Assembly (NCBI GenBank): GCA_003452935.1
Contig: DMMY01000016.1
Location: 142,009 to 206,008 of the forward strand
Length of the DNA: 64,000 nucleotides
Direction: 5' to 3'
Source of the DNA: Elusimicrobiota bacterium
GTDB lineage: Bacteria > Elusimicrobiota > Elusimicrobia > UBA1565 > UBA9628
The notes under the pieces were generated by a model. That model was not told where the DNA came from. It saw nothing but the letters and a program-made list of their open reading frames with translations, and did no database searches. Made by a program: the position numbers and the translations under genes. Below are positions 955 through 63,126 of this stretch, piece after piece. Positions within the stretch are counted from its first letter, which is position 1. Every line of letters begins with the position of its first letter.

Positions 955-1039
955 AAGTCCTTACTAGCCCAATGCGTAAAATACGTGAAAGCCTGACACC
1001 GAAGGCCTAGGCGGGCTGGGCCCTTGGGCCCTCGACGGG

Positions 1040-1068
1040 AAACTAGGGCCCTGGTACAATAAGTCATA
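1040..1068 (+). promoter_or_regulatory. Partial copy (R0) of the repeated GGGCCC/AT-box cassette, abutting the GTG start of the downstream gene
   Basis: tagggccctggtacaataagtcata aligns with tagggcccttgacaatatagtat at 59596-59619. A TACAAT box ends 8 nt before GTG 1069. Confidence 0.5.
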
Positions 1069-14942: not shown

Positions 14943-15875
14943 CTAGGCGCGGGCCCGGGCCGCCATGCAGGGCAGATGCGACGCCGCGTAGGCGCGCCAA
15001 GCCGGCTCAAAGCCGCGCATATGCTCCAGGCCCTGACGCGCGCCCAGCAGCGGCACGTCCACGCAGGAGCGGACCTTATCGGTCAGCAATATCGCTTCCT
15101 TGGGCCGGCGCGCCGGGGATTTGAAATCAGAGATCGACGCGGCCCTCACCAGTGACGCGTCGAGTCCGAAACAGCCGGCCGCCATGGCCGCCAGCTCATG
15201 ACGGCTCGCCGCGTCCGGACCCACCACGTGAAAAATCCCGCCCCGGTCCTTTTCGCTCAAAGCGACGGAGACCTCGGCGAGGTTCTCGGCGTAGGTGGCG
15301 GTGACCCGCGAGTCCGAGGCCGCCCGAACCTCAGCTCCGGCCCTGAGCCGTCCCAACACCTGCAACACGAAATTCTTGGGCTCCCATTGCCAGCCGAAAG
15401 CCGCAGCCGTGCGCAACACGAAGTTCCGTGAAGACGCGGCCAGGACCAGTTCCTCGGCCTCGGCTTTCTGCCGGCCGTACTCGTTGAGGGGGCAAACCGC
15501 GTCGTTTTCCTTATAAACGCCCTTGCGGCCGTCGAAGACATAATCCGAGGAGAAGAAGATCATCCGCGCGCCGATGTCTTGGCAGGCCCGGGCCACGTTG
15601 AAAGTCCCGGCCACGTTGACGCGCCGGGTCTCATCCGGATGAAGCTCGCAATAATCCACATGGGGATTGGCCGCGGGCACGGCCACGACTTCCGGGACCA
15701 GGCTCTCCAGGACGCGGCGCACCGCGCGCTCGTCTTGCATGTCGAGCCGGCTGAAATGCGGGCACGGATGGCAGTGGAACGTCGCGCCCACGACCCGGCG
15801 GCCGCGCCTGTCCCAGGCCCGCATGAGAGCGTTGCCCACCAAGCCCGTGCCGCCGATAACGAAAATTCCCGCCAT
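14943..15875 (-). CDS. NAD(P)-dependent sugar-nucleotide reductase, RmlD (dTDP-4-dehydrorhamnose reductase)-like
   Basis: GGTGLVGNAL Rossmann motif; FFSSDYVFDG ... YGRQKAEAE (the STDYVFDG / YxxxK signature of RmlD). Confidence 0.65.
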   Translation of the reverse strand: MAGIFVIGGTGLVGNALMRAWDRRGRRVVGATFHCHPCPHFSRLDMQDERAVRRVLESLVPEVVAVPAANPHVDYCELHPDETRRVNVAGTFNVARACQDIGARMIFFSSDYVFDGRKGVYKENDAVCPLNEYGRQKAEAEELVLAASSRNFVLRTAAAFGWQWEPKNFVLQVLGRLRAGAEVRAASDSRVTATYAENLAEVSVALSEKDRGGIFHVVGPDAASRHELAAMAAGCFGLDASLVRAASISDFKSPARRPKEAILLTDKVRSCVDVPLLGARQGLEHMRGFEPAWRAYAASHLPCMAARARA

Positions 15876-15912
15876 AGGGCAGGCATTATAACATATGTGC
15901 CTAAAATCCTAT

Positions 15913-18397: not shown

Positions 18398-18464
18398 ATA
18401 TCCTATTTATATTATCATGTATAAAAGAATACACCTTTTAACTGGAAATAGCCGGCCCGGCAAG

Positions 18465-18473
18465 TGATATAAT
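18465..18473 (+). promoter_or_regulatory. Extended -10 (TGaTATAAT) 9 nt upstream of the wza ATG, implying a near-leaderless transcript
   Basis: gtgatataat at 18464-18473; ATG at 18483; no SD in between. Confidence 0.45.
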
Positions 18474-18482
18474 CTTCTAGCT

Positions 18483-19151
18483 ATGAAACGAATTTTTCCG
18501 ACCTTCTGCGCCCTGGCACTGGGCCTGCAAGCCTGCGCCGGGATTAAACTGGGCTCTCCGAACTCGCCTGCGTCGCGCTCAACCTCCTCCCAGGAAAAGG
18601 CCGAGGAAGCCGCGCTGCAGTCCGTGCTGCAGAATCTCCAGACCAAAAAATCCGACTACAAGCTGGGCGGCGCGGACTTGATCGAGATCACGGTGTTCCA
18701 GCAGCCGGAGATGAGCCGCAGCCTGCGCGTGAGCCAAAACGGCACGATCACGTTTCCCTTGATCGGCACGGTGAAGGTAGGGGGGCTTTCGGTCGCCGAA
18801 GCCGAAGAAGCGCTCTCCACGAAACTCAAGGACTACGTCATCAGCCCGCAGATCACGATCTTCATCAAGGAATACGGCAACAAGAAGGTCTTCGTGCTGG
18901 GCGAGGTGACCAAGCCGGGCTCCTTCGAACTGCCCACCGAAGCCAAGCTGACCGTGCTGGAAGCGATTTCCTTAGCAGGAGGATTCACCGGCATCGCGGC
19001 ACCGGACCGCACCAAGGTGATCCGCAACATCGACGGCAAGAGCCAAAGCTTCAAGATCGTGGTCTCGGACATCACCTCGCGGGGGGAAAAGCACAAGGAC
19101 ATCCCCCTGGAGCCCAACGACGTGGTCTGGGTGCCGCAGAGCTTTTTCTAA
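18483..19151 (+). CDS. wza: Polysaccharide export outer-membrane lipoprotein, Wza-like (Poly_export + SLBB)
   Basis: Lipobox LGLQAC; FPLIGTVKVGGLSVAEAEEAL and GEVTKPG motifs of the polysaccharide export family. Confidence 0.8.
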   Translation: MKRIFPTFCALALGLQACAGIKLGSPNSPASRSTSSQEKAEEAALQSVLQNLQTKKSDYKLGGADLIEITVFQQPEMSRSLRVSQNGTITFPLIGTVKVGGLSVAEAEEALSTKLKDYVISPQITIFIKEYGNKKVFVLGEVTKPGSFELPTEAKLTVLEAISLAGGFTGIAAPDRTKVIRNIDGKSQSFKIVVSDITSRGEKHKDIPLEPNDVVWVPQSFF

Positions 19152-41075: not shown

Positions 41076-42323
41076 ATGGAAGACGCTTCAATCAAGTTCG
41101 CCGCCTTAAGAAGGTCCCGGCTTCCGATCAAATTGGCCTTTTACGAACCCTATCCGATGGGCCTGGGCGGCAACTATCTCACCCAGCGCCTGATCCTGGA
41201 GCGGCTCAATCGCGCACGTTTTTTACCCATCGTGCTAGCTCCCAGGGAGGGGGCGGCGCTTGATCGATTTCGGACAATGGGGGTACAATGCATTGTGATA
41301 CCTCCGCCCGAAACCCTCAATCGCTATGGCGGCGCAGCTCTGAGAGTTGGGGCGTTCGAAAAGTTAAAAGCCGCCGCAGATCTGGTTAAATACAACCTTC
41401 GGTTGGCCAAATTCCTGCACGAGCGGAATATCGATGTCGTCTACGCCAATTGCGTACGCGCCCAACTGAGCATAGGCCTCGCCGCCCGGCTCGCACGGGT
41501 GCCAAGTCTTCTCTATATCAAAGGGGAATTGGCGAATCCGTTTATAGATCGCCTCTGTTTTTTAATGGCCTCAAGACTCCTGTTTTTCTGCGCTCAAAAT
41601 CGCGATGACCGATACCCTTTTTTCGTGCGCTGGTTTCGGCGCAAGATCGGCATCCTAAAAATCGGACTGGATCCAGCCTTGATAGCGGGAGCTCAAGGGC
41701 ATGATTCCACTGCTCTTCGCGAGGAACTCGATATCAGGCCTGACCGCATTAATACGGCGGTGTTGGCGCAACTCTACAGACCCAAGGGACAGCATCTTGT
41801 CATTGAAGCTCTCTCTAGGCTGGTAGCCGAATTCCCCCAGGTACGCCTGTATCTTTTAGGAGATCATGTCCTCGAAGAATACCGCAATTACAAGACAGAA
41901 CTCGAAGCCCTGATCGAGCGGCATGGTCTTACCCGGCATGTCCTCTTCACCGGATGGCGCAAGGACGCGCTGGAGATCGCCAACCTAATGGACATCGTCA
42001 TTCATCCTTCCTTGGCGGAAGGATTCGGCCGCGCCATCCTGGAATCGTTGGCCTTGGGCAAGCCCGTTATCGCGTCGGCTGTTGGCGGAGCAAGGGAAGC
42101 CATCCGTGATGGGCAAAACGGTTTCCTGGTGAAAGCCGGCGATGTCGATGCTATCACACTGCGATGGCGCGAGCTACTATCTAATGAGAGACTTCGGCAA
42201 AGGCTAGGACAGGAAGCCAAAAACACTGTATTTTCCGAATACTTGATAGACGACAAAGTGGCTCGCCTCGCTGACATATGGGCTGAGATGGCCTCGGGAC
42301 GAAAAAAAGAATGTGTGGCATAG
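41076..42323 (+). CDS. Glycosyltransferase family 1 (GT4-like)
   Basis: C-terminal EGFGRAILESLALGKPVIASAVGGAREAIRDGQNGFLV signature. Confidence 0.8.
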   Translation: MEDASIKFAALRRSRLPIKLAFYEPYPMGLGGNYLTQRLILERLNRARFLPIVLAPREGAALDRFRTMGVQCIVIPPPETLNRYGGAALRVGAFEKLKAAADLVKYNLRLAKFLHERNIDVVYANCVRAQLSIGLAARLARVPSLLYIKGELANPFIDRLCFLMASRLLFFCAQNRDDRYPFFVRWFRRKIGILKIGLDPALIAGAQGHDSTALREELDIRPDRINTAVLAQLYRPKGQHLVIEALSRLVAEFPQVRLYLLGDHVLEEYRNYKTELEALIERHGLTRHVLFTGWRKDALEIANLMDIVIHPSLAEGFGRAILESLALGKPVIASAVGGAREAIRDGQNGFLVKAGDVDAITLRWRELLSNERLRQRLGQEAKNTVFSEYLIDDKVARLADIWAEMASGRKKECVA

Positions 42324-44242
42324 CAGGGGAGTTAAGTTTCGACGCCCCGGTCAGCGCCCAAGCGCTGCGGTGCATGACCACGGCAATCACCCATCGCGGG
42401 CCTGATGATGAGGGGTTGTATTGCGAGGGACGAATAGGCCTCGGTCACCGGCGGCTATCGATCATCGACATCTCATCTGCCGGACACCAGCCTATGTGGA
42501 CGGAAGATCGCTCCCTCGCCATCATCTTCAATGGGGAAGTCTATAACTACCGCGAAATTCGCCCAGACCTCGAAAAAAACGGCTACCACTTCCGCAGCAA
42601 CTCAGACACTGAAGTTGTCCTTAACGCCATTCACTGTTGGGGGCTGGAGAAAGCGCTCAAGCGCTTCATCGGCATGTTCGCCTTCGCCGTGTGGGACTCT
42701 CGAGACCGGACACTTTGGCTGGCACGGGATCGGGTGGGGATAAAACCGCTTTATTACCACATATCCAGGCAACGCTTTTTATTCGGCTCAGAACTCAAGG
42801 CCCTTTATGCTCACCCGTTCTTCCAACGCGACCTTTTGCCAAAAGGCTTGGCCCAGTATTTCTGTTTCGGTTATACCCTAGGTGGAACCACGGTCTACAA
42901 AGACACCTACAAACTGCCCGCAGGGCACTATCTGCGCGTTGCTCAGGGCGGCCAGATTTCATTGACACGCTTCTGGAGCCTCGACCACATTGAAAGAGGA
43001 TCATTCCGCGGCACGTTTGAAGAAGCCTCGGAACAGCTGACCGCTTTATGCGACAGCGCTTTCGCATACCGGTTGGTGTCGGATGTGCCGGTGGGAGTAT
43101 TTCTCTCCGGGGGCATCGACTCCGCCTTTTTAGCGGTATTTTTAAAAAAACGCTTGGGCGTCGATCTGGAGCACATCTCCATCGGCTTCAACGATCCTGC
43201 TTACGATGAAACCTCAAAGGCCGTCACGGTGGCGCAGGATATCGGCCTGCGTCACGCGACAAAGACTCTCGACGCGCGCGAATCCCAAGACGCCCTGCAC
43301 CGCTTCGTTGAAATATGGGATGAGCCTTTTGGCGACACTTCAGGGATACCTATGCACATCCTCTGCGGCCTGGCGCGACAGAAAGTCAAGGTGGCCCTCT
43401 CCGCCGACGGAGGCGACGAGCTGTTCTGCGGCTATGAGAGCTATCCGGCTTACGATGCCCGCTACCGTTGCCTGCAACGATTCCCTCTGCCATTACGCAG
43501 GGCGGCCGCCGAGGTCCTGCGCCTCTTGCCCTACCGCACGCTGATTTCAACAGGACTTCGCGGCCAGACTGATTCTTGCTGGAATCCTCAAGCTATCGCC
43601 CGTTACGAAAAAGCGATAGAACTATTGCAGACGACAGGGGCGGAAGATGCAACCCGGGTCATAAACGAAAAGGGCTGGACCGCGGGGGCCGTCGCGAAGC
43701 TCCTAGGCCTCAGCCATTGCGACGCAATTTCAGGAACCGTCTTCGAAGAATCATTCAAGGACAGAGGACGCGGAGCTTTCATTGACCACATGATGCGCAC
43801 GGATCTGGCCGCTTTTCTAGGCGAGGACATTCTGACAAAGGTGGATCGCGCCTCGATGGCCGCATCCCTTGAGTGCCGGGATCCCTTCCTTGACCATCGA
43901 TTGATCGAGTTCTCTTTTTCTCTCCCGCTCAACTATCTCTATGATCACGGAGAACACAAACGCATCCTCAAGAAAATAATTCGTCCCTGGATCTCTCCGT
44001 CGGTTCTTAACGCCCCGAAAAGAGGCTTCTCCATCCCCCTTTACAATTGGATGAGAGGCCCCTGGAAGCCGCTAGTCGACGAATATCTTTCTCCAAGCAA
44101 GATTCGCCGCATTGGAGTATTGAATGATCGAGCGGTCAAGCGGGAATTGGACGACTTCTACCAATATCGGGGCTGCCGCGCCGAAAAAATCATGCTGCTG
44201 CTTAATTTTCAAATGTGGGCGGAACGATGGCTGCGATCCTGA
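42311..44242 (+). CDS. Asparagine synthetase B-like glutamine amidotransferase (PseA/WbpS-type) no. 1
   Basis: N-terminal MCGIAG nucleophile; SGGIDSAF PP-loop. Confidence 0.85.
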   Translation: MCGIAGELSFDAPVSAQALRCMTTAITHRGPDDEGLYCEGRIGLGHRRLSIIDISSAGHQPMWTEDRSLAIIFNGEVYNYREIRPDLEKNGYHFRSNSDTEVVLNAIHCWGLEKALKRFIGMFAFAVWDSRDRTLWLARDRVGIKPLYYHISRQRFLFGSELKALYAHPFFQRDLLPKGLAQYFCFGYTLGGTTVYKDTYKLPAGHYLRVAQGGQISLTRFWSLDHIERGSFRGTFEEASEQLTALCDSAFAYRLVSDVPVGVFLSGGIDSAFLAVFLKKRLGVDLEHISIGFNDPAYDETSKAVTVAQDIGLRHATKTLDARESQDALHRFVEIWDEPFGDTSGIPMHILCGLARQKVKVALSADGGDELFCGYESYPAYDARYRCLQRFPLPLRRAAAEVLRLLPYRTLISTGLRGQTDSCWNPQAIARYEKAIELLQTTGAEDATRVINEKGWTAGAVAKLLGLSHCDAISGTVFEESFKDRGRGAFIDHMMRTDLAAFLGEDILTKVDRASMAASLECRDPFLDHRLIEFSFSLPLNYLYDHGEHKRILKKIIRPWISPSVLNAPKRGFSIPLYNWMRGPWKPLVDEYLSPSKIRRIGVLNDRAVKRELDDFYQYRGCRAEKIMLLLNFQMWAERWLRS

Positions 44243-46031: not shown

Positions 46032-47954
46032 ATGTGCGGAATAGCCGGGCTTTTTTCTCGCGCGCCGCGCCGGCACGAGCCCCTCTTATCGAGCGCCTCA
46101 GCCATGGTGCGCGCAATCCGTCATCGCGGGCCCGACGGCGAGGGAATTTGGACCGACCCTCGGGGGCATACGGCATTGGGCCACGCCCGACTGGCCATCA
46201 TTGATGTGACAGAAACCGGCAAGCAACCCATGATCTCCCGAGACGGGAATTTCGTCCTGACCCTAAATGGCGAGATTTACAATTACGTTGAACTGCGCCG
46301 CGAGCTTCTCCAGGCAGGATTAAAGCTTCGCGGAACGTCCGATACCGAGGTACTGCTCGAAGCCATGGCTCATTGGGGCATCGAAAGCACACTGGCGCGC
46401 TCACGCGGCATGTTCGCCATGGCAGTTTGGGATATCGAAAGACAATGCCTTTGGCTCGCGCGCGATCGCGTCGGCAAAAAGCCCCTTTACTTCTACGATC
46501 ACGCCGACACCTTTATGTTCGCATCAGAAATCAAAGGCTTGCTGGCCGCGCCAGACGTCCAGGTCACTATTTCACAGCAATCACTCTCTGATTATCTATC
46601 GCTCGGATTCATCCTGGGCTCCGACACAATCTATCGCGAAATATCGGAAGTGCGGCCCGGCACGCTGATAAAAGTCGGGATAGGACTCCAAACTCGACAA
46701 GAGAGCGTCTATTGGCGGTTTCCTGCCCAAACAGCCCGCATCCTAGCGCCGGAGGAAATACAGGAAGAAACGGAAAAACGGCTCAGCGATGCCGTTCGCC
46801 TAAGATTACGCGCGGATGTGCCCGTCGGCGTATTCCTGTCCGGGGGCATAGACAGCGGCCTGATCACCGCCTTCGCCGCGACACAGTCCAGAGAGCCGAT
46901 CCATTCCTTCACTGTCGCGTTCAGCACTTCCACCTTTGACGAATCCAGGCTCGCGCGTTTGGTCGCCCAACGCTACGCGACCATCCATCATGAAATTTAC
47001 CTTAACCCCGACCTTGAGGAACTGCTCCCCAAGGTGGTGCGAACCTATGACGAACCTTTCGCGGATCCGTCAGCCTTGCCTACTTACGCTATTTCTGGCG
47101 AGGCGGCAAAGCGCGTCAAGGTCGTTCTCAACGGCGAAGGCGCCGATGAATTATTCGGTGGCTACAGGCGCGTTTTCGCGATGCGCTGGCTCGCAAAAAT
47201 CGACCATCTCCTGCGCAAATTTCCGCCCAACACTCTAAGATCGATTGCGGACGCCTTGCCGCGGCCGAGGGGGTTCCGCAGCGCATATTCATTCCTGCAC
47301 CGCTTCGCCAGGGCGGCGCAAGCCGATTCCGCGACCCGTTATCTTTTATGGTCTTCGGATGGTTTCGATCATGACGAGAAACAGCGACTCGGCCTGATCG
47401 GCGCGAAAGACTCTACTCGTCCCACGGCGCAAGCCTTAAGAGATTGCCTCGCTTCCTACAAGACCTTGCCGGCATTATCCGAATTCATGGCGTTCGATTT
47501 TCTCGTTGGAATGGCCGATTGCCTTCTCCCCAAGATAGATATGGCCACCATGGCGCATGGCTTGGAGGGGAGATCCCCTTTCCTGGACCAGGAAGTCGTT
47601 GAATGGGCGGCTGGAATCGACAAATCAGCGCTTCTCGCCGGCTGGAAAACCAAACCGGTTCTACGCGCCATTGCAAGTCGCCATTTGCCGTCCGCAGTGA
47701 CGCGCGCGCCGAAGCGGGGGTTTGAGATTCCCCTGGTACAGTGGATGAAACACGATCTGCACGCCATGGCGCATGATATCTGCGCGTCGCGAGACAGCAT
47801 CCTATTCGACCTATTCGATCGTCGAGAGGTGCTGGCCGTTCTAAATCGTCAAGTTCTCATGGATGATGAGCGCTGGGCCAAGCGCATGTGGACGCTCCTA
47901 ATGCTCGCTTACTGGGGGAGGTGCGCTCATGAAGATCGCTTGCATTGCGCCTGA
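46032..47954 (+). CDS. Asparagine synthetase B-like glutamine amidotransferase no. 2
   Basis: MCGIAGLFS; SGGIDSGL PP-loop. Confidence 0.85.
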   Translation: MCGIAGLFSRAPRRHEPLLSSASAMVRAIRHRGPDGEGIWTDPRGHTALGHARLAIIDVTETGKQPMISRDGNFVLTLNGEIYNYVELRRELLQAGLKLRGTSDTEVLLEAMAHWGIESTLARSRGMFAMAVWDIERQCLWLARDRVGKKPLYFYDHADTFMFASEIKGLLAAPDVQVTISQQSLSDYLSLGFILGSDTIYREISEVRPGTLIKVGIGLQTRQESVYWRFPAQTARILAPEEIQEETEKRLSDAVRLRLRADVPVGVFLSGGIDSGLITAFAATQSREPIHSFTVAFSTSTFDESRLARLVAQRYATIHHEIYLNPDLEELLPKVVRTYDEPFADPSALPTYAISGEAAKRVKVVLNGEGADELFGGYRRVFAMRWLAKIDHLLRKFPPNTLRSIADALPRPRGFRSAYSFLHRFARAAQADSATRYLLWSSDGFDHDEKQRLGLIGAKDSTRPTAQALRDCLASYKTLPALSEFMAFDFLVGMADCLLPKIDMATMAHGLEGRSPFLDQEVVEWAAGIDKSALLAGWKTKPVLRAIASRHLPSAVTRAPKRGFEIPLVQWMKHDLHAMAHDICASRDSILFDLFDRREVLAVLNRQVLMDDERWAKRMWTLLMLAYWGRCAHEDRLHCA

Positions 47955-58431: not shown

Positions 58432-59486
58432 CGGCCTGCCTGCTGGGACTAAGCGCCTGCCAAGGGGGGGGGGCCTATTTCCCAATCGGATTATTCAACA
58501 CGGGAAATCCCAAGGACCTCCGGTCCATTAAAAAGGCCGGATTTAACGCGGTCCAGACTTACTCCCGCGACCCGGCGCAGCTCAAGGCCCTGGCCAAGGC
58601 CGCCGATAAAGCCGGCGTCAAGCTCCTGGCCCATCCCCAGGAGCTCTCGGCCTCGACCGTGCCCGTGCGCGGCTGGCCCATGGCGGCTTGGTATCTCGTC
58701 GACGAGCCCGACGTCAACGGCATGAGTCCGAGCGAGCTCTGCTACCTCGCCGGCAAGGTCAAGGCCTGGGCGCCCCGGATACCGGGCGCTTTCGTGGTCG
58801 GCGCCGGGGCCAAGGCCCGGGACTACGCGGCCTGCGGCGACATCCTCATGGTCGACTGGTACCCCGTGCCCCACATGCCCCTTGAATCCGCGGGAGAGAA
58901 CGTGCGCCTCACCGTCGAGGCCGCGGGCGACAAGCCGGTCTGGGCCGTGCTCCAGGCCATGAACTGGAAAGACTACGCCCAGCGCGATCCCAAAAAGCCG
59001 CGCGTCGGCAGATTCCCGACATACGGCGAGATACGCTTCATGACCTATCACTCCATCATCGCCGGGGCCAAGGGCGTATGGTACTTCTCATACGCCAAGC
59101 CCGGCGGCGCGACCCTGGCGCAAAGCCCGGAGGAATGGCTCGCCGTCACCGCCATGGCCAAGGAACTCGCCGCGCTTCGCCCCATCTTCGAGGGGGGAAC
59201 TCCCGCCTATCTTCCCTTCCCGCCCAACCCGGACGGCCCCCTGGCCAAGGCCTGGCGCTATCACGGCCGCGACTACGTCATCATCGCCAACCCCAAGCCC
59301 AAGGCCATGCAGCTCGTGCCCGAGGCGTTGCTCGCGATGCATTGGCGGCCGCTTTTCGAGACCAGGCGCTACCAGAAGGAGCTCTTGAAGAAGGTCGGGG
59401 AAGGCTTTTATCTGCCGCCCTACCGCGTCCTGGTCTTCGAAAGCCGCCTCTCCTGGCGCTCTTCCCGCCCCAAGACCTGGCCTTAA
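58377..59486 (+). CDS. Lipoprotein paralog 2 of the 55336 protein (host-like GC)
   Basis: Lipobox LLGLSAC. Same conserved blocks as paralog 1. Lies inside a long artefactual ORF (56910..59486); the real start is the ATG at 58377. Confidence 0.35.
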   Translation: MPLRPAISYSPCLRLGLLAACLLGLSACQGGGAYFPIGLFNTGNPKDLRSIKKAGFNAVQTYSRDPAQLKALAKAADKAGVKLLAHPQELSASTVPVRGWPMAAWYLVDEPDVNGMSPSELCYLAGKVKAWAPRIPGAFVVGAGAKARDYAACGDILMVDWYPVPHMPLESAGENVRLTVEAAGDKPVWAVLQAMNWKDYAQRDPKKPRVGRFPTYGEIRFMTYHSIIAGAKGVWYFSYAKPGGATLAQSPEEWLAVTAMAKELAALRPIFEGGTPAYLPFPPNPDGPLAKAWRYHGRDYVIIANPKPKAMQLVPEALLAMHWRPLFETRRYQKELLKKVGEGFYLPPYRVLVFESRLSWRSSRPKTWP

Positions 59487-59546
59487 GGCCTTTCGCCGCG
59501 ACAGGAGATGCGGCCGAAGCGGCCGCAACCTTCACGACAACGGCGC

Positions 59547-59619
59547 GGAACCTTTTTGAGGGTTCGATCGTATACCTCCTAGGCTGATCCGGGCCATAGG
59601 GCCCTTGACAATATAGTAT
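59547..59619 (+). promoter_or_regulatory. Repeat cassette R1 (ggaacctttttgagg...GGGCC-ata-GGGCCC-TTGACAATATAGTAT) abutting the ATG at 59620
   Basis: Aligns over ~70 nt with 62354-62435. A GACAAT box ends 7 nt before the ATG, a leaderless geometry. Confidence 0.5.
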
Positions 59620-59955
59620 ATGCAATCTAATATATATGTTAGTAGCGGCCATATTAAAGCCAAGCCGCTCATCAGGTACAAACTGACGGATGAAGAGGGA
59701 AATTTAACGCAAATAGCGGCGTGGAGGGTTCCGGCAGATGCGAAGCATCCGGAAGGGGTGCGATACAGAATGGCTTTTGTCCCAAGGGGGCATTCGCGCC
59801 CCGTCGTCCTCTACGATAACCATCATCCAAAAGGACACCACAAACACATAGGCGCGCAAGAAAGCCCCTATCTGTTTTTCGACGCGCGCCGGTTGGTGCT
59901 GGATTTCAACCGGGACATCCAGCTCTGGAAGCAAGCCAGGGGGTGGCCGCAATGA
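59620..59955 (+). CDS. Small protein with an HHPKGHHKH motif, putative TumE-like (DUF6516-type) toxin component
   Basis: 111 aa; YDNHHPKGHHKHIG histidine-rich motif; its 3' end overlaps the next gene (ATGA). Confidence 0.35.
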   Translation: MQSNIYVSSGHIKAKPLIRYKLTDEEGNLTQIAAWRVPADAKHPEGVRYRMAFVPRGHSRPVVLYDNHHPKGHHKHIGAQESPYLFFDARRLVLDFNRDIQLWKQARGWPQ

Positions 59956-60323
59956 AGGTCGTTACCTTTGAAATCAAGGACGCGGCAACGGCCATGGCTC
60001 AGTTCCAAGAGGCGTTCGAAGCCGCCCACGGCCGAAAACCCTTCAAGCCGAAGTCCGGGGTCTATTTCACGAGCCTCGCAGCGGTGAGGAATTTCCTCAC
60101 TCCGAAACGGCTGGCCCTGCTTCGCCTCATCCGCGCGAAAAAGCCCCACAGCATCTACCACCTAGCCCAATTAACGGGCCGGAGCTTTTCCAGCGTCCTC
60201 AAGGACGTGGACATGCTTGCCAAACATGGCCTCGTGAGATTATCAAGGGACAAGGCCTCGGCGCGGCGCGCCGTGCATCCGTGCGTCGGCTACAGCGCCA
60301 TCCAGGTTTGGATCAACGTTTAA
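59952..60323 (+). CDS. Winged-HTH DNA-binding protein, putative antitoxin partner
   Basis: LTPKRLALLRLIRAKKPHSIYHLAQLTGRSFSSVLKDVDMLAKHGLV HTH; tightly coupled to the upstream small ORF. Confidence 0.45.
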   Translation: MKVVTFEIKDAATAMAQFQEAFEAAHGRKPFKPKSGVYFTSLAAVRNFLTPKRLALLRLIRAKKPHSIYHLAQLTGRSFSSVLKDVDMLAKHGLVRLSRDKASARRAVHPCVGYSAIQVWINV

Positions 60324-60332
60324 ACCGGGCCT

Positions 60333-62252
60333 TCAGGAGGCCGCGGCCGGCTCCGGGGGCGGGGCGAGGCTGCGCCGGAAAGCGTCCATGCCGGGCATGC
60401 GGCCGAGGAAGTCGCGGAGCATTTGCCAGGGGTCCTTGGAGGCTCCAGGCTCAAGGACCTTCCTGCGGTACTCCATGCCGACCTTGGGGTTGAGGATTCC
60501 CTCGGCCAAAAACCTCGAGAGAACATCGACGGAGCGCACGTAAGCCCATGGATAGCCGTAGTAGCCTGCCTCGTAGCCCGATACGATATGATCAAAGTCC
60601 CCTATAACGGCTTTTGGGAAGTACCCGACCCACTCCGCGAAGACGCGGGCTGCGGCCTGGCCGACGTCCAGGGGGGACTCCAGGGTGTGGAAAGCCAGAT
60701 CCATGGCCGCAAGGGCCGAATGATACATCAGGTAATCGGCCGAGGCGGCGGACTGGGCGGCGAGCTGCTCTCGCAGGAGCTCCGGCGGCAGTTTTCGCGA
60801 CGGATCCTGGTCGTGGCCCGAGATGCGGGCGACGATCTCAGGCCGCCAAACCGCGTTTCCCCATAGCATGGACGGGATTTCCCTGAAGTCGACGGGGACC
60901 GACCACGAGTCATACCGGCTGTAGCGCGTCCTGGAGAGCAGTCCGTGCATGAGATGCCCGAATTCATGGAAAATCCTTTCCACTTCCTCGGGGCCGAGCC
61001 ACACGTTCGGATCCACGGAGCTTTTCTTGAATTTGGCGACCACGAGATTGATCGGATTTTGGTAGCCCCCGGCGCCGGAGGCATGGCCCTTGCGCAGGGC
61101 GTCGGCCCAGCCGTCTCCGACTTTCCCCGGACGATCGAAGAGGTCGAGGTAGAAGCTCCCTATCGCGCGGCCCGTGGCCGCGTCCGAGACCTCGAAGAAC
61201 CTCACGTCCGGATGCCAGGCCTGGGCCGGCAGTTCCTTGAAGTCGATCCCCAGGATCTCATGGAATATCTCGAAGGTCCCCTTCAGCACGGTGGCCACGG
61301 GAAAGTAGGGGCGCAGCCTCTGGTAAACGCTTTGGCCGTTTTGGGGAGCCTGGGCCCGCGCGCGGCCGGGCGATTGCAGTTCCGTCTTGAGCTCCGACAG
61401 GAAGGCTGCCGCATTTTCCGGAGTGCGCGCCATGTTCCGCGCGAGCCGGTATTGGGCGAAGTTCTTATAGCCCAGGATGCGGCTTTGTTCCTGGCGCAGC
61501 GCCAGTATCTCGCGCAGGATCGGCGGATTTATTTCCTCGGGCCGGCTCGGGCGCCCGGGCTGAGGCTGCCGCCCGGCCGGCGAATTGCCGGCGCGCGCCA
61601 GCAGCGCGCTTCCTACCGGCGCCTGGCTTTCCTCGAACTTGGAGATGTTGTCGACGAAAGCCTGGCTCAGTTCCGAGAGGCGATCATTGATGGCCTTTAG
61701 GTTGACGCGCTGTTCGATGGGCAGACCCATGCCCCGGGCCCTGTAATCCCGCAAAACGTCTTCCAGGAGCTTCTTGTTCTCCCCGCGCAGACGATCCTCG
61801 GCTTGCGCGGCCCGCAGGACCGCTTGGTAGATATCCTCGCGATAATTCAAGTCATCGAAGTGCCGCGCCGACCGGCGTTCAAGGGCTTTAGCCGCCCGCC
61901 TGACGCGAGGGTCCGGCGAGACGTCCTTCATCATGATCCAGGGAAGCACCGCGTCGTTGTAGCTCTCATGGGCCCGCTCCAGGGCCCGGACCGTGTTCTT
62001 GAAGTTCCGCTCGGCCGCCGGGACGACCAAGACCGCGTCGACGGCGGCGTTGTGACGCCGCTCGACTTCCTTATATCCGTTAATCATCCGCGCGTGGGTG
62101 AAGGAAAAATCCAGACCCGGACCCAAGGCGGACGCGCCCGCGGCGGCGGAAACGTTTCCGGCCGGAGTCCGGCCGCGGAGGGCGATCGCCTGGCCGCGGG
62201 CCGCGGCCGGCAGCAGGAACGCAGCCGAGGCCGCGATGAGTCCGAGGTTCAT
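60333..62252 (-). CDS. Secreted M3-family zinc metallopeptidase (oligopeptidase A / peptidyl-dipeptidase Dcp-like)
   Basis: Signal peptide; HEFGHLMH HExxH motif with downstream Glu; length and layout typical of M3. Confidence 0.85.
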   Translation of the reverse strand: MNLGLIAASAAFLLPAAARGQAIALRGRTPAGNVSAAAGASALGPGLDFSFTHARMINGYKEVERRHNAAVDAVLVVPAAERNFKNTVRALERAHESYNDAVLPWIMMKDVSPDPRVRRAAKALERRSARHFDDLNYREDIYQAVLRAAQAEDRLRGENKKLLEDVLRDYRARGMGLPIEQRVNLKAINDRLSELSQAFVDNISKFEESQAPVGSALLARAGNSPAGRQPQPGRPSRPEEINPPILREILALRQEQSRILGYKNFAQYRLARNMARTPENAAAFLSELKTELQSPGRARAQAPQNGQSVYQRLRPYFPVATVLKGTFEIFHEILGIDFKELPAQAWHPDVRFFEVSDAATGRAIGSFYLDLFDRPGKVGDGWADALRKGHASGAGGYQNPINLVVAKFKKSSVDPNVWLGPEEVERIFHEFGHLMHGLLSRTRYSRYDSWSVPVDFREIPSMLWGNAVWRPEIVARISGHDQDPSRKLPPELLREQLAAQSAASADYLMYHSALAAMDLAFHTLESPLDVGQAAARVFAEWVGYFPKAVIGDFDHIVSGYEAGYYGYPWAYVRSVDVLSRFLAEGILNPKVGMEYRRKVLEPGASKDPWQMLRDFLGRMPGMDAFRRSLAPPPEPAAAS

Positions 62253-62353
62253 GCGCCTATAGTCTAAGCGAATAAGCGGCTTTCGCGTATGGGGCCCAAG
62301 GCCCGCAATTCAGGCGACAAAAGACCCAGCGATTTCCTGGGCCCGGAATGCGG

Positions 62354-62435
62354 GCGAGGACTGGAACTTTTTTGAGGGGTCGCTCGTATATCCTTCAGGG
62401 AACCGGCCCAAAGGGCCCTTGTTAAAACATCAAAT
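62354..62435 (+). promoter_or_regulatory. Repeat cassette R2 (ggaacttttttgagg...GGCCC-aaa-GGGCCC-TTGTTAAAAC...) abutting the ATG at 62436
   Basis: Direct repeat of R1 about 2.8 kb away; GGGCCC palindromes at 62298-62311 and 62323-62330. Confidence 0.5.
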
Positions 62436-62804
62436 ATGATGTATCATGGCCGGGTAGGGCGATACGAACTGATCTTCTATGAAGATGCCCGCGGCATATG
62501 CCAAGTCCGAGATTATCTGCGCGCCCAGAGCAAAAAGGTCCGGGGCCATGCCGGCTGGTTATTGCAGCGGCTCGAGGAAGACGGCCCGAATCTGATCCGG
62601 CCGTCAGCAGCCTGCCTGGGCGACGGGATATATGAGCTTCGGATCATCGCGGAGAGGCGCCAACATCGGATTCTATACTTCTTTGATCGCGAGTTTATCG
62701 TGGCTACGAACGCTTTTCTCAAGAAGTCGGACCGAGTGCCCGACGCGGAAATAGAAAAAGCCAAGAAGACGCGCGCGGCGTGGAGAGGCCACCGAGGAAA
62801 ATGA
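62436..62804 (+). CDS. higB: HigB-like (Gp49/DUF891, RelE/ParE superfamily) toxin
   Basis: LEEDGPNLIRP...GDGIYELRII...HRILYFFDREFIVATNAFLKKSDRVPDAEIEKA, the canonical Gp49-like toxin pattern. Confidence 0.7.
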   Translation: MMYHGRVGRYELIFYEDARGICQVRDYLRAQSKKVRGHAGWLLQRLEEDGPNLIRPSAACLGDGIYELRIIAERRQHRILYFFDREFIVATNAFLKKSDRVPDAEIEKAKKTRAAWRGHRGK

Positions 62805-62805
62805 C

Positions 62806-63126
62806 ATGAGCACGAAAAAGAGACGGCACGTTCGCCTTAAGGATTTTTTACGGGAAGAATTGAAGGATCCGGCAATCCGAAGGTTTTATCACGAAGCCCG
62901 CGCCGAATGGCTCGCCGCCCAAGCGGTCATGAAGGCAAGGGCAGCGGCTCATTTGACGCAGGCTCAGTTGGCCCGCAGGATTCACACCAGCCAGCAGGCC
63001 ATCTCACGCATCGAGGCGGGGGAGCAAAACACCACCGTCGAAATTCTCCAGAAAATCGGCCGCGCCCTGGGCATGGAGCTGCGCATCGCTTACAAACCCA
63101 GAAGCCTGCGTCTTAAACACGCCTGA
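62806..63126 (+). CDS. higA: XRE-family HTH antitoxin (HigA-like)
   Basis: AAAHLTQAQLARRIHTSQQAISRIEAGEQNTTVEILQKIGRALGMEL XRE HTH; toxin-first order as in higBA. Confidence 0.7.
   Translation: MSTKKRRHVRLKDFLREELKDPAIRRFYHEARAEWLAAQAVMKARAAAHLTQAQLARRIHTSQQAISRIEAGEQNTTVEILQKIGRALGMELRIAYKPRSLRLKHA

Follow-up and report, generated by a model that had tools for sequence, protein, structure and literature searches.

The 64,000-nt window analysed here, from contig DMMY01000016.1 of an uncultured groundwater Elusimicrobiota bacterium, contains two toxin-antitoxin (TA) operons, tumE/tumA and higB/higA, and one copy of a repeated element stands upstream of each (R1 and R2, respectively). These copies probably constitute a tandem cassette in which an extracytoplasmic function (ECF)-type promoter, P_A, is followed by a GGGCCC palindrome, box B, and by a sigma70-type promoter, P_B, that holds a TA operator. 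Sequence reading and comparison with orthologous loci showed the motifs, how they are spaced and that they are conserved. The components of both cassettes, with predicted transcription start sites (TSS), Shine-Dalgarno (SD) sequences and open reading frames (ORFs), are as follows:

59547..59574, + strand: P_A of tumE/tumA; -35 GGAAC 59547-59551, T-tract 59553-59557, 17-nt spacer, -10 CGTATA 59569-59574; predicted TSS ~59581
59591..59604: box B of tumE; palindrome-like GGGCC-ATA-GGGCCC abutting the P_B -35, centre at about -42.5 from the predicted P_B TSS
59605..59633, + strand: P_B of tumE/tumA; TTGACA-17 nt-TAATAT, predicted TSS ~59640 (consensus scan, orthologues)
59620..59955, + strand: TumE-family toxin ORF (Pfam TumE); first-ATG call, with the ATG within the P_B spacer
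59952..60323, + strand: TumA-like antitoxin (HVO_A0114/MarR-type winged helix-turn-helix, Pfam), with its own SD-like GGGGGTGG
62363..62390, + strand: P_A of higB/higA; -35 GGAAC 62363-62367, T-tract, 17-nt spacer, -10 CGTATA 62385-62390; predicted TSS ~62397
62405..62418: box B of higB; inverted repeat GGCCC-AAA-GGGCCC abutting the P_B -35, centre at about -42.5
62419..62447, + strand: P_B of higB/higA; TTGTTA-17 nt-TATCAT, predicted TSS ~62454 (consensus scan, orthologues)
62427..62442: 16-bp palindrome ACATCAAATATGATGT between the P_B -35 and -10, containing the higB ATGATG start codons
62436..62804, + strand: HigB (Gp49/RelE-type) toxin (Pfam Gp49); ATG ATG directly upstream of the P_B -10
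62806..63126, + strand: HigA antitoxin (XRE HTH_3, Pfam), SD GAGGA

The initial annotation had reported this repeat, and blastn recovered it with 51/62 identities (82%, 4 gap columns; 59547-59607 versus 62363-62421; pairwise E 2e-12), with no further copy in the 64-kb window. A gapless repeat search did not list it because indels break the extension, so that blastn was needed. Identity of either copy with the regions upstream of its own orthologues is just 57-61%, and both copies are about 70% identical to "consensus-type" cassettes of other genomes (L013, L026, L028a; L numbers designate the collected loci). The likeness between R1 and R2 could reflect either strong selection on a near-consensus cassette or copying between the operons. 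The earlier proposal of a shared promoter-type element rather than a chance repeat is supported.

The gene names assigned earlier (TumE, HigB, SLT transglycosylase, wza) were also recovered by Pfam, which places an M3 peptidase gene on the opposite strand between the two TA operons. The same DNA is present in GCA_003509925.1 (contig DOMI01000048.1), identical TumE proteins are encoded on groundwater-metagenome contigs, and the toxins and the ECF sigma factor have their closest named homologues in Elusimicrobia metagenome-assembled genomes (MAGs). Upstream of R1, a perfect 7-bp GC hairpin without U-tract (GCGGCCG-AAG-CGGCCGC, 59510-59526) lies 24 nt past the stop codon of the preceding gene and may be a terminator or processing site; a weak Rfam miRNA match at this hairpin is spurious.

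Box A and ECF-type promoters

Both copies of box A, the P_A motif, read GGAAC, T5-6, GAGGG.TCG.T and CGTATA, and GGAAC-N17-CGTATA is the best-conserved part of R1/R2, which had been overlooked in the initial annotation. The pattern GGAAC-N16/17-CGTAT is found twice in the window against 0.12 expected, and a relaxed scan of the window (NNAAC, A/T-tract, CGT[AC]) returned R1 and R2 only. A third copy, R3, is located 4.5 kb past R2, outside the window, where GGAACTTTTCGAGGGGATGCTCGTATC is followed by 6 nt and the ATG of an XRE-type helix-turn-helix (HTH) gene; judged by this geometry, it is the clearest candidate for a leaderless transcript in the source genome. The R3 locus is L001:17295-17636 (about window coordinate 66914), and after the XRE-HTH gene comes a 513-aa protein without Pfam match.

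A database pattern built from these three copies forced GAGGG in the spacer and gave 14 genome matches (4 Elusimicrobiota MAGs) and 15 metagenome matches. These matches are biased and include probable chance ones (an Enterovibrio coding sequence, Spirochaetes), and the consensus was not based on them. An unforced set of 14 copies was obtained instead from a GGAAC-N16/17-CGTA re-scan of the collected DNA together with fetched orthologous loci. The unforced copies share GGAAC, a homopolymeric TTTT or AAAA, a spacer of 16-17 nt and T-CGTA-T. The -35 is GGAAC in 13/14 (TGAAC in L041), the spacer measures 17 nt in 11 and 16 nt in three, CGTA is preceded by T in 12/14 and followed by T in 11/14, and the tract after the -35, which is TTTTT or TTTTTT in R1 and R2, is classed as TTTT (8), AAAA (4) or TAAA (2). 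Regarding its distribution, box A lies upstream of 4/4 higB orthologues examined (R2, L044, L046, L048). It also precedes a HigB-like gene that is more distant (L028c) and, among the tumE orthologues, the closest one (L036). Conservation in the orthologues is confined to the -35 and -10 positions.

At R3, at an ORF6N gene and at three retropepsin-like paralogues whose products all begin with MGE, exactly 6 nt separate a CGTATN hexamer from the ATG that follows it. This arrangement corresponds to a leaderless geometry, and hence the TSS was set at the 7th nt after the hexamer. The three retropepsin-like (gag-asp_proteas) paralogues are in tandem on the minus strand (L014:1007, 1493, 1979) at intervals of about 486 nt, and a separate box A precedes each of them.

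Box A is also associated with ECF sigma operons. In the Elusimicrobia MAG GCA_016205025.1 (L037), an ECF sigma/zf-HC2 anti-sigma operon has two divergent copies around its start, and the leftward copy (GGAACTTTTTTTGAGGCTTGCTCGTATA) is upstream of DUF4398/OmpA genes, which it would drive. In "bacterium F11" (L041), TGAACTTTTT-N11-TCGTAGG is found 34 nt before the sigma ATG. Homologous sigma operons carry MucB/RseB, and therefore the system appears to be RpoE-like. It is the leaderless geometry, the orthology and this sigma-factor association, taken together, that lead us to place box A in the ECF class.

Published ECF promoters show a -35 tGAAACnTTTt and a -10 CGTA for sigmaW, and the T-tract is also found in ECF02/RpoE (PMC5758882). 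R1 and R2 present an AAC-core -35, a CGTA-type -10 at 17 nt and a -35-proximal T-tract. Box A in general resembles the ECF (group 4) promoters of B. subtilis sigmaW and E. coli RpoE/ECF02 in its AAC -35, T-tract, 16-17 nt spacer and CGTA -10, and its copies adjoin an ECF sigma/zf-HC2/RseB-like operon and envelope genes (OmpA, DUF4398). Unlike in those systems, the cognate sigma is here inferred, some copies have an A-tract in place of the T-tract, many targets are TA, HTH and other accessory genes, several copies precede leaderless ORFs (hexamer, 6 nt, ATG), and one subclass conserves the spacer (TTTTTGAGGGGTCG.T), which is not normally required. The 5' half of R1/R2 can thus be described as a putative ECF-sigma-type promoter.

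A sigma54 promoter was also considered and rejected, as neither box A nor box B has the right GG/GC spacing. The same database pattern matched Lachnospiraceae-type contigs (L008, L018, L025, L029 and L035; 39-52% GC) that share GGGAAATGGAACTTTTTTGAGGGCTGGTTCGTATTA, which looks like an ECF-type promoter conserved across species.

P_B, toxin start codons and box B

The 3' end of R1/R2 would correspond to the -35 of a second promoter, presumably of the sigma70 type. The P_B -35 begins at the "TTG" that ends the repeat and the -10 lies inside the non-homologous AT-rich part, and together they match the consensus at 10/12 positions in R1 and 9/12 in R2. The tumE orthologues L036, L039 and L037 carry TTGAC[AT]-17-TAATAT, and in L037 and L039 the canonical TumE ATG is 17-19 nt after the P_B -10. 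The higB orthologues present TTGACA..TATCCT, GTGATG..TATAAT and TTGCCA..TATACT, and L028c presents TTGACA..TAATCT, with a 17-nt spacer in all. In all the cassettes tabulated (15/15), exactly 17 nt separate the -35 hexamer from a -10-like hexamer, while the toxin ATG can follow that -35 after anything from 9 to 23 nt. This constant spacing against a variable ATG gap argues that the -10 words are not merely AT-rich coding starts.

The initial annotation had taken an "AT box" (TTGACAATA in R1, TTGTTAAAA in R2) as the -10 of a promoter ending shortly before the start codon. That box aligns with the P_B -35, and in R1, R2 and all orthologues fetched the -10 follows after exactly 17 nt. No homology exists between the AT box of R1 and that of R2; each matches its own orthologues. 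What had been read as one box would therefore comprise the P_B -35 hexamer, the antitoxin operator and the -10.

The toxin start codons (ATG 59620; ATG ATG 62436) lie between the -35 and the -10 of P_B, and hence P_A alone would produce a toxin-encoding message. In R1, L036, R2, L044, L046, L048 and L028c, the only usable toxin ATG is upstream of the predicted P_B TSS, and an antitoxin-only geometry of P_B fits all of them. Downstream of this predicted TSS, higB has no in-frame start codon and tumE has just ATT 59653. Furthermore, the antitoxin genes have SD sequences and the toxin genes do not.

The window ORF 59620-59955 and the next gene (HVO_A0114/MarR-type HTH) resemble the TumE-TumA toxin-antitoxin family (PMC10584680). 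About 90 TumE homologues of 97-100 aa begin with MKA..LLR.KLTD, and their start aligns with residue 12 of the window ORF, where ATT 59653-59655 takes the place of the initiator ATG. Only the closest homologue (L036) shares with the window ORF both the ATT and the 11-residue N-terminal extension encoded in the promoter. Either ATT 59653 is a rare AUU start, or initiation has moved to the upstream ATG. Concerning HigB, the homologues with an extension begin with M[MP]Y and then N, H, P, T or S. This agrees with ATG..TAT+NNT, made up of the operator and the -10, with the TAT codon beginning the -10.

The 16-bp palindrome at higB is probably the HigA operator. It is perfect (ACATCATATATGATGT) in L046, matches at 7/8 per arm in R2 (62427-62442) and at 6/8 in L044, and its counterpart in L048 is ATACGGCA-N4-TGCCGTAT. 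As in type II TA operators, this putative operator overlaps the operon promoter and is conserved among orthologues. In R1, the AT-rich P_B spacer is likely to be the TumA operator region.

Antitoxin promoters located inside toxin genes have precedents. On plasmid Rts1, a higA promoter lies within higB. In mqsRA, two constitutive mqsA promoters inside mqsR are antitoxin-only promoters (PMC6918082). The operons of the window are likewise toxin-first, and the predicted P_B TSS, downstream of the toxin start, would give antitoxin without toxin. Unlike in these precedents, P_B would overlap the first toxin codons instead of lying deep in the ORF and would carry the putative operator, and a predicted stress promoter of the ECF type would give the full-length transcript.

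Between P_A and P_B, the inverted repeat GGGCC-N3-GGGCC(C) described in the initial annotation is indeed present in each copy (59591-59604, 62405-62418 and, in the element R0, 1018-1031). R0 precedes a transglycosylase gene and had been proposed as a third copy of the 3' half of the repeat. This is correct for the common GGGCCC element and the TACAAT box, whereas the 5' half is entirely absent from R0. No R0-R1 match was obtained by blastn-short. A local alignment paired TAGGGCCCTGGTACAATA-AGTCATA with TAGGGCCCTTG-ACAATATAGT-ATA (22 matches, 3 gaps; score reached by 0/1000 shuffles), and the part common to both is only TAGGGCCCT.G.ACAATA.AGT.ATA. The features related to R0 and to a fourth box B, together with wza, are:

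1018..1060, + strand: R0; box B GGGCCCTTGGGCCC 1018-1031, weak -35 TCGACG 1032-1037, 17 nt, -10 TACAAT 1055-1060, no box A
1069-1857: SLT transglycosylase (Pfam)
62261..62304, - strand: fourth box B, at the M3 peptidase gene; GGGCCTTGGGCCC 62304-62292, 25 nt, TAGACT 62266-62261, 8 nt to ATG 62252
18483-19151: Poly_export/wza (Pfam)

In R0, the GTG 1069 start is 8 nt after the -10, and a third GGGCCC is found at 1046-1051, in the 17-nt spacer. As R0 and the peptidase promoter have no box A, box B is considered independent of it. The distance from GGAAC to the TTG of the -35 is variable (46-58 nt), and the two boxes were therefore treated as separate modules. Overall, GGGCCC is not enriched in the window (30 found, 29-41 expected), and 7/30 of the sites fall in three intergenic regions totalling about 430 nt. 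The composite GGSCC-N2-3-GGGCCC gave 8 register matches in the window versus 0.7 in shuffles; a fifth site, at 1690 inside the SLT coding sequence, is probably due to chance.

The distance from the end of GGGCCC to a -10-like hexamer is 23 nt in R0, R1, R2, a coiled-coil protein family (L021, L026, L028 twice) and L048:5667, and 25 nt at the peptidase gene. The -35 next to box B is often weak (TCGACG, CATACG, GCGTCA, TTGTGG). This fixed spacing, the centre at about -42.5 and the weak -35 fit a regulator site, and box B is most likely a putative regulator-binding site. Class II activator sites of the CRP/FNR type are centred near -41.5. Box B resembles them as a 13-14 bp GC palindrome that abuts an often weak -35 with its centre at about -42.5. 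A repressor site is just as possible, and so is a roadblock for P_A. Box B would occupy positions from about +10 to +24 of the predicted P_A transcript. The binding of GGGCCC by a regulator had been suggested in the initial annotation; the fixed position before the -10 is in line with it, and the binder itself is presumed. To our knowledge, the box B sequence (GGGNCC-N2-3-GGGCCC) resembles no nameable regulator site.

The coiled-coil family mentioned above comprises proteins of 87-102 aa without Pfam match, and every member gene has box A and box B upstream (L021:1257-1340; L026:863-780; L028:8960-8870 and 8334-8250). Its SD-led ATG overlaps the -10 and a second conserved ATG follows four codons later (MxxxM), so these genes may have dual starts from two promoters.

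Several genes of the window have start codons very close to a -10 box of the sigma70 type. wza (18456-18485) has TGATATAAT+9+ATG; an RmlD-like gene (15875-15905, minus strand) has TATAAT+9+ATG; and the M3 peptidase (62252-62266, minus strand) has TAGACT+8+ATG, all of them without SD. Near-leaderless transcripts seem, by this geometry, to be common in the source organism. The SLT start is called at GTG 1069 in one assembly and at ATG 1096 in two others, and GTG alone fits the near-leaderless geometry. The region 18000-56000, with a GC content of 49-58% versus 60-66% in the flanks, is a polysaccharide-biosynthesis/export island (wza, aminotransferases, methyltransferases, epimerases) that was probably acquired horizontally. 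Two paralogous genes of about 640 aa (42311-44242 and 46032-47954), separated by 3.7 kb, have DNA stretches of 32-41 nt in common that are 78-85% identical and make up the repeat families D10 and D15.

Alternative readings of the cassette

In the initial annotation, the GGGCCC palindrome was an operator and the next box (TG-a-CAATAT or GACAAT in R1; TAAAAC or AAACAT in R2) was the sigma70 -10 of a leaderless toxin mRNA. This reading is unlikely for R1/R2, although several of its elements are real and its leaderless geometry does apply, in essence, to R0 and to box A at other genes. The A/T-rich hexamers do exist 7-8 nt before the annotated starts (GACAAT, ending 7 nt before ATG 59620, in R1; TAAAAC in R2; TACAAT, 8 nt before GTG 1069, in R0, which aligns with R1). 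Moreover, an in-frame ATG is found at a constant 9 nt after TTGAC[AT] in R1, L036 and L039, [AG]AACAT is conserved 8 nt before the second higB ATG in three orthologues, and near-leaderless geometry is genuine in this lineage and common in this genome: at R0, wza and the peptidase gene, 8-9 nt separate a -10 box from the start codon. In these features the promoters resemble the leaderless-mRNA promoters of Actinobacteria and Deinococcus, in which about 7-10 nt lie between a TATAAT-like box and the start codon, and the same is true of the RmlD-like gene and of box A at R3 and in other genomes. However, the candidate hexamers of R1/R2 agree with TATAAT at just 3-4 of 6 positions, and 17 nt upstream of them no usable -35 hexamer is present, whereas the same bases form a consensus -35 (TTGACA) with a much better -10 located 17 nt downstream, beyond the ATG, as in every orthologue. 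In L037 the TumE ATG comes after that -10, with no ATG upstream, and [AG]AACAT is accounted for by the operator palindrome ACATC...GATGT. A weak leaderless promoter may overlap the -35 hexamer of R1/R2.

It is improbable, too, that P_A is the sole functional promoter, with the P_B words as by-products of an AT-rich operator and an unstructured translation-initiation region; one ECF-type transcript would then account for the whole expression of toxin and antitoxin. Hexamers of the -10 type are frequent in AT-rich contexts, in the tumE set more than one spacing reaches 4-5 of 6, and the "-10" of the coiled-coil family coincides with the SD-to-ATG spacer. Against this stand the constant 17-nt distance already described, with its variable distance to the ATG, and the perfect TATAAT of L046. 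In addition, the L037 tumE combines TTGACA-17-TAATAT with a degenerate box A (GGCTA...CGTAAG), so that P_B must drive that operon, and R0 and L048:5667 have box B and a -10 without box A.

A cis-regulatory RNA, either a structured 5' untranslated region (UTR) or a small RNA, is very improbable. A 5-bp GC hairpin (GGGCC/GGCCC) can form in R1 and R2, and the palindrome in the higB leaders can pair over AUGAUG; nevertheless, nine predicted 5' UTRs have folding energies no better than those of shuffled sequences (z between -1.95 and +1.05), the hairpin is not kept in other cassette members, and the TSS that the leaderless cases with 6 nt imply is downstream of the best-conserved half, box A. Rfam gave no match at gathering thresholds over the whole window, and an E-value scan of 59400-62500 returned only spurious matches below threshold, the miRNA one and an RNase P fragment. 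An RNA role for box B is not supported. Hardly credible is a selfish or structural repeat travelling with TA cassettes and devoid of promoter role, such as a repetitive extragenic palindrome or interspersed mosaic element (REP/BIME), a miniature inverted-repeat transposable element (MITE), an integron attC or an att remnant. The greater likeness of R1 and R2 to each other than to their own orthologues and the accessory or mobile-type neighbouring genes would favour it. On the other hand, there are only three copies in about 80 kb, all intergenic, co-oriented with the downstream gene (5' of it) and at fixed distances from start codons; the direct reading of the sequence gave neither terminal inverted repeats nor an attC-like R''/L''-L'/R' structure; conservation across orthologues is confined to the promoter positions; and the box A pattern had 0 matches in viral contigs. 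As an integron attC, att remnant or tRNA-like element, "GGGTTCGATC" was examined and discarded: it is T-loop-like but not conserved in R2, has no matching stem and lacks R''/R' cores.

Several points weigh against the tandem cassette with P_A and P_B. The sigma-promoter pairing, the role of box B and the differential coding capacity are deduced, and all the start sites given here are predictions. The toxin ATGs have no SD on the P_A transcripts, and toxin translation from them is assumed. Box A is present at only 2/5 Elusimicrobia sigma homologues (L037 and L041; none at L040, L042 and L043), and a regex search did not find an ECF sigma gene in about 80 kb of the source genome; the 10 kb upstream of the window contain neither box A nor a sigma gene. 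The called L037 sigma ATG is inside the box A spacer (L037:19489-19515), with no in-frame start downstream. The GAGGG spacer of R1, R2 and R3 is superfluous for an ECF promoter and absent from many copies. Finally, -10-like words arise easily in DNA as AT-rich as that around the P_B -10s of R1 and R2, and the orthologue sets are not independent samples, since they represent about 5-6 independent lineages. It should also be noted that the L037 sigma gene, with its start codon within the promoter, shows the same pattern as the toxins, and that the shared spacer TTTTTGAGGG.TCG.T exceeds the needs of an ECF promoter, so something else also constrains the cassette.

Possible operation of the cassette and its meaning

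Tentatively, the tandem cassette could act as a gate. In the higBA and tumEA operons of Elusimicrobia, an autoregulated housekeeping promoter would yield antitoxin mRNA only, an envelope-stress promoter read by an RpoE-like ECF sigma would gate the toxin via TSS choice, and the GGGCCC palindrome would be a shared regulator site that could switch both promoters reciprocally; this remains a possible model that we regard as rather doubtful. According to it, the P_A transcript, with a 39-nt SD-less leader in both R1 and R2, would carry the toxin start codon and encode toxin and antitoxin, and the P_B transcript would begin inside the toxin ORF and express the SD-bearing antitoxin only. For P_A the palindrome would be a roadblock, and for P_B a class II site.

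Regarding genome annotation, calling the first ATG puts the start of these toxin genes, and possibly that of one sigma gene, within a promoter. Elusimicrobia are a phylum with almost no experimental genetics, and GGAAC-T4/A4-N12-TCGTAT, with a predicted TSS 7 nt downstream, is proposed as the first promoter consensus for an RpoE-like ECF regulon in this group. By geometry, this regulon would include leaderless genes, and the recurrent GC palindrome at about -42 is a candidate site for a regulator. Moreover, the activation of chromosomal TA modules is disputed and toxin-first operons pose a stoichiometry problem. If the model is true, toxin transcripts made under a stress sigma factor, together with antitoxin-only transcripts from a housekeeping promoter, would be a simple and testable solution.

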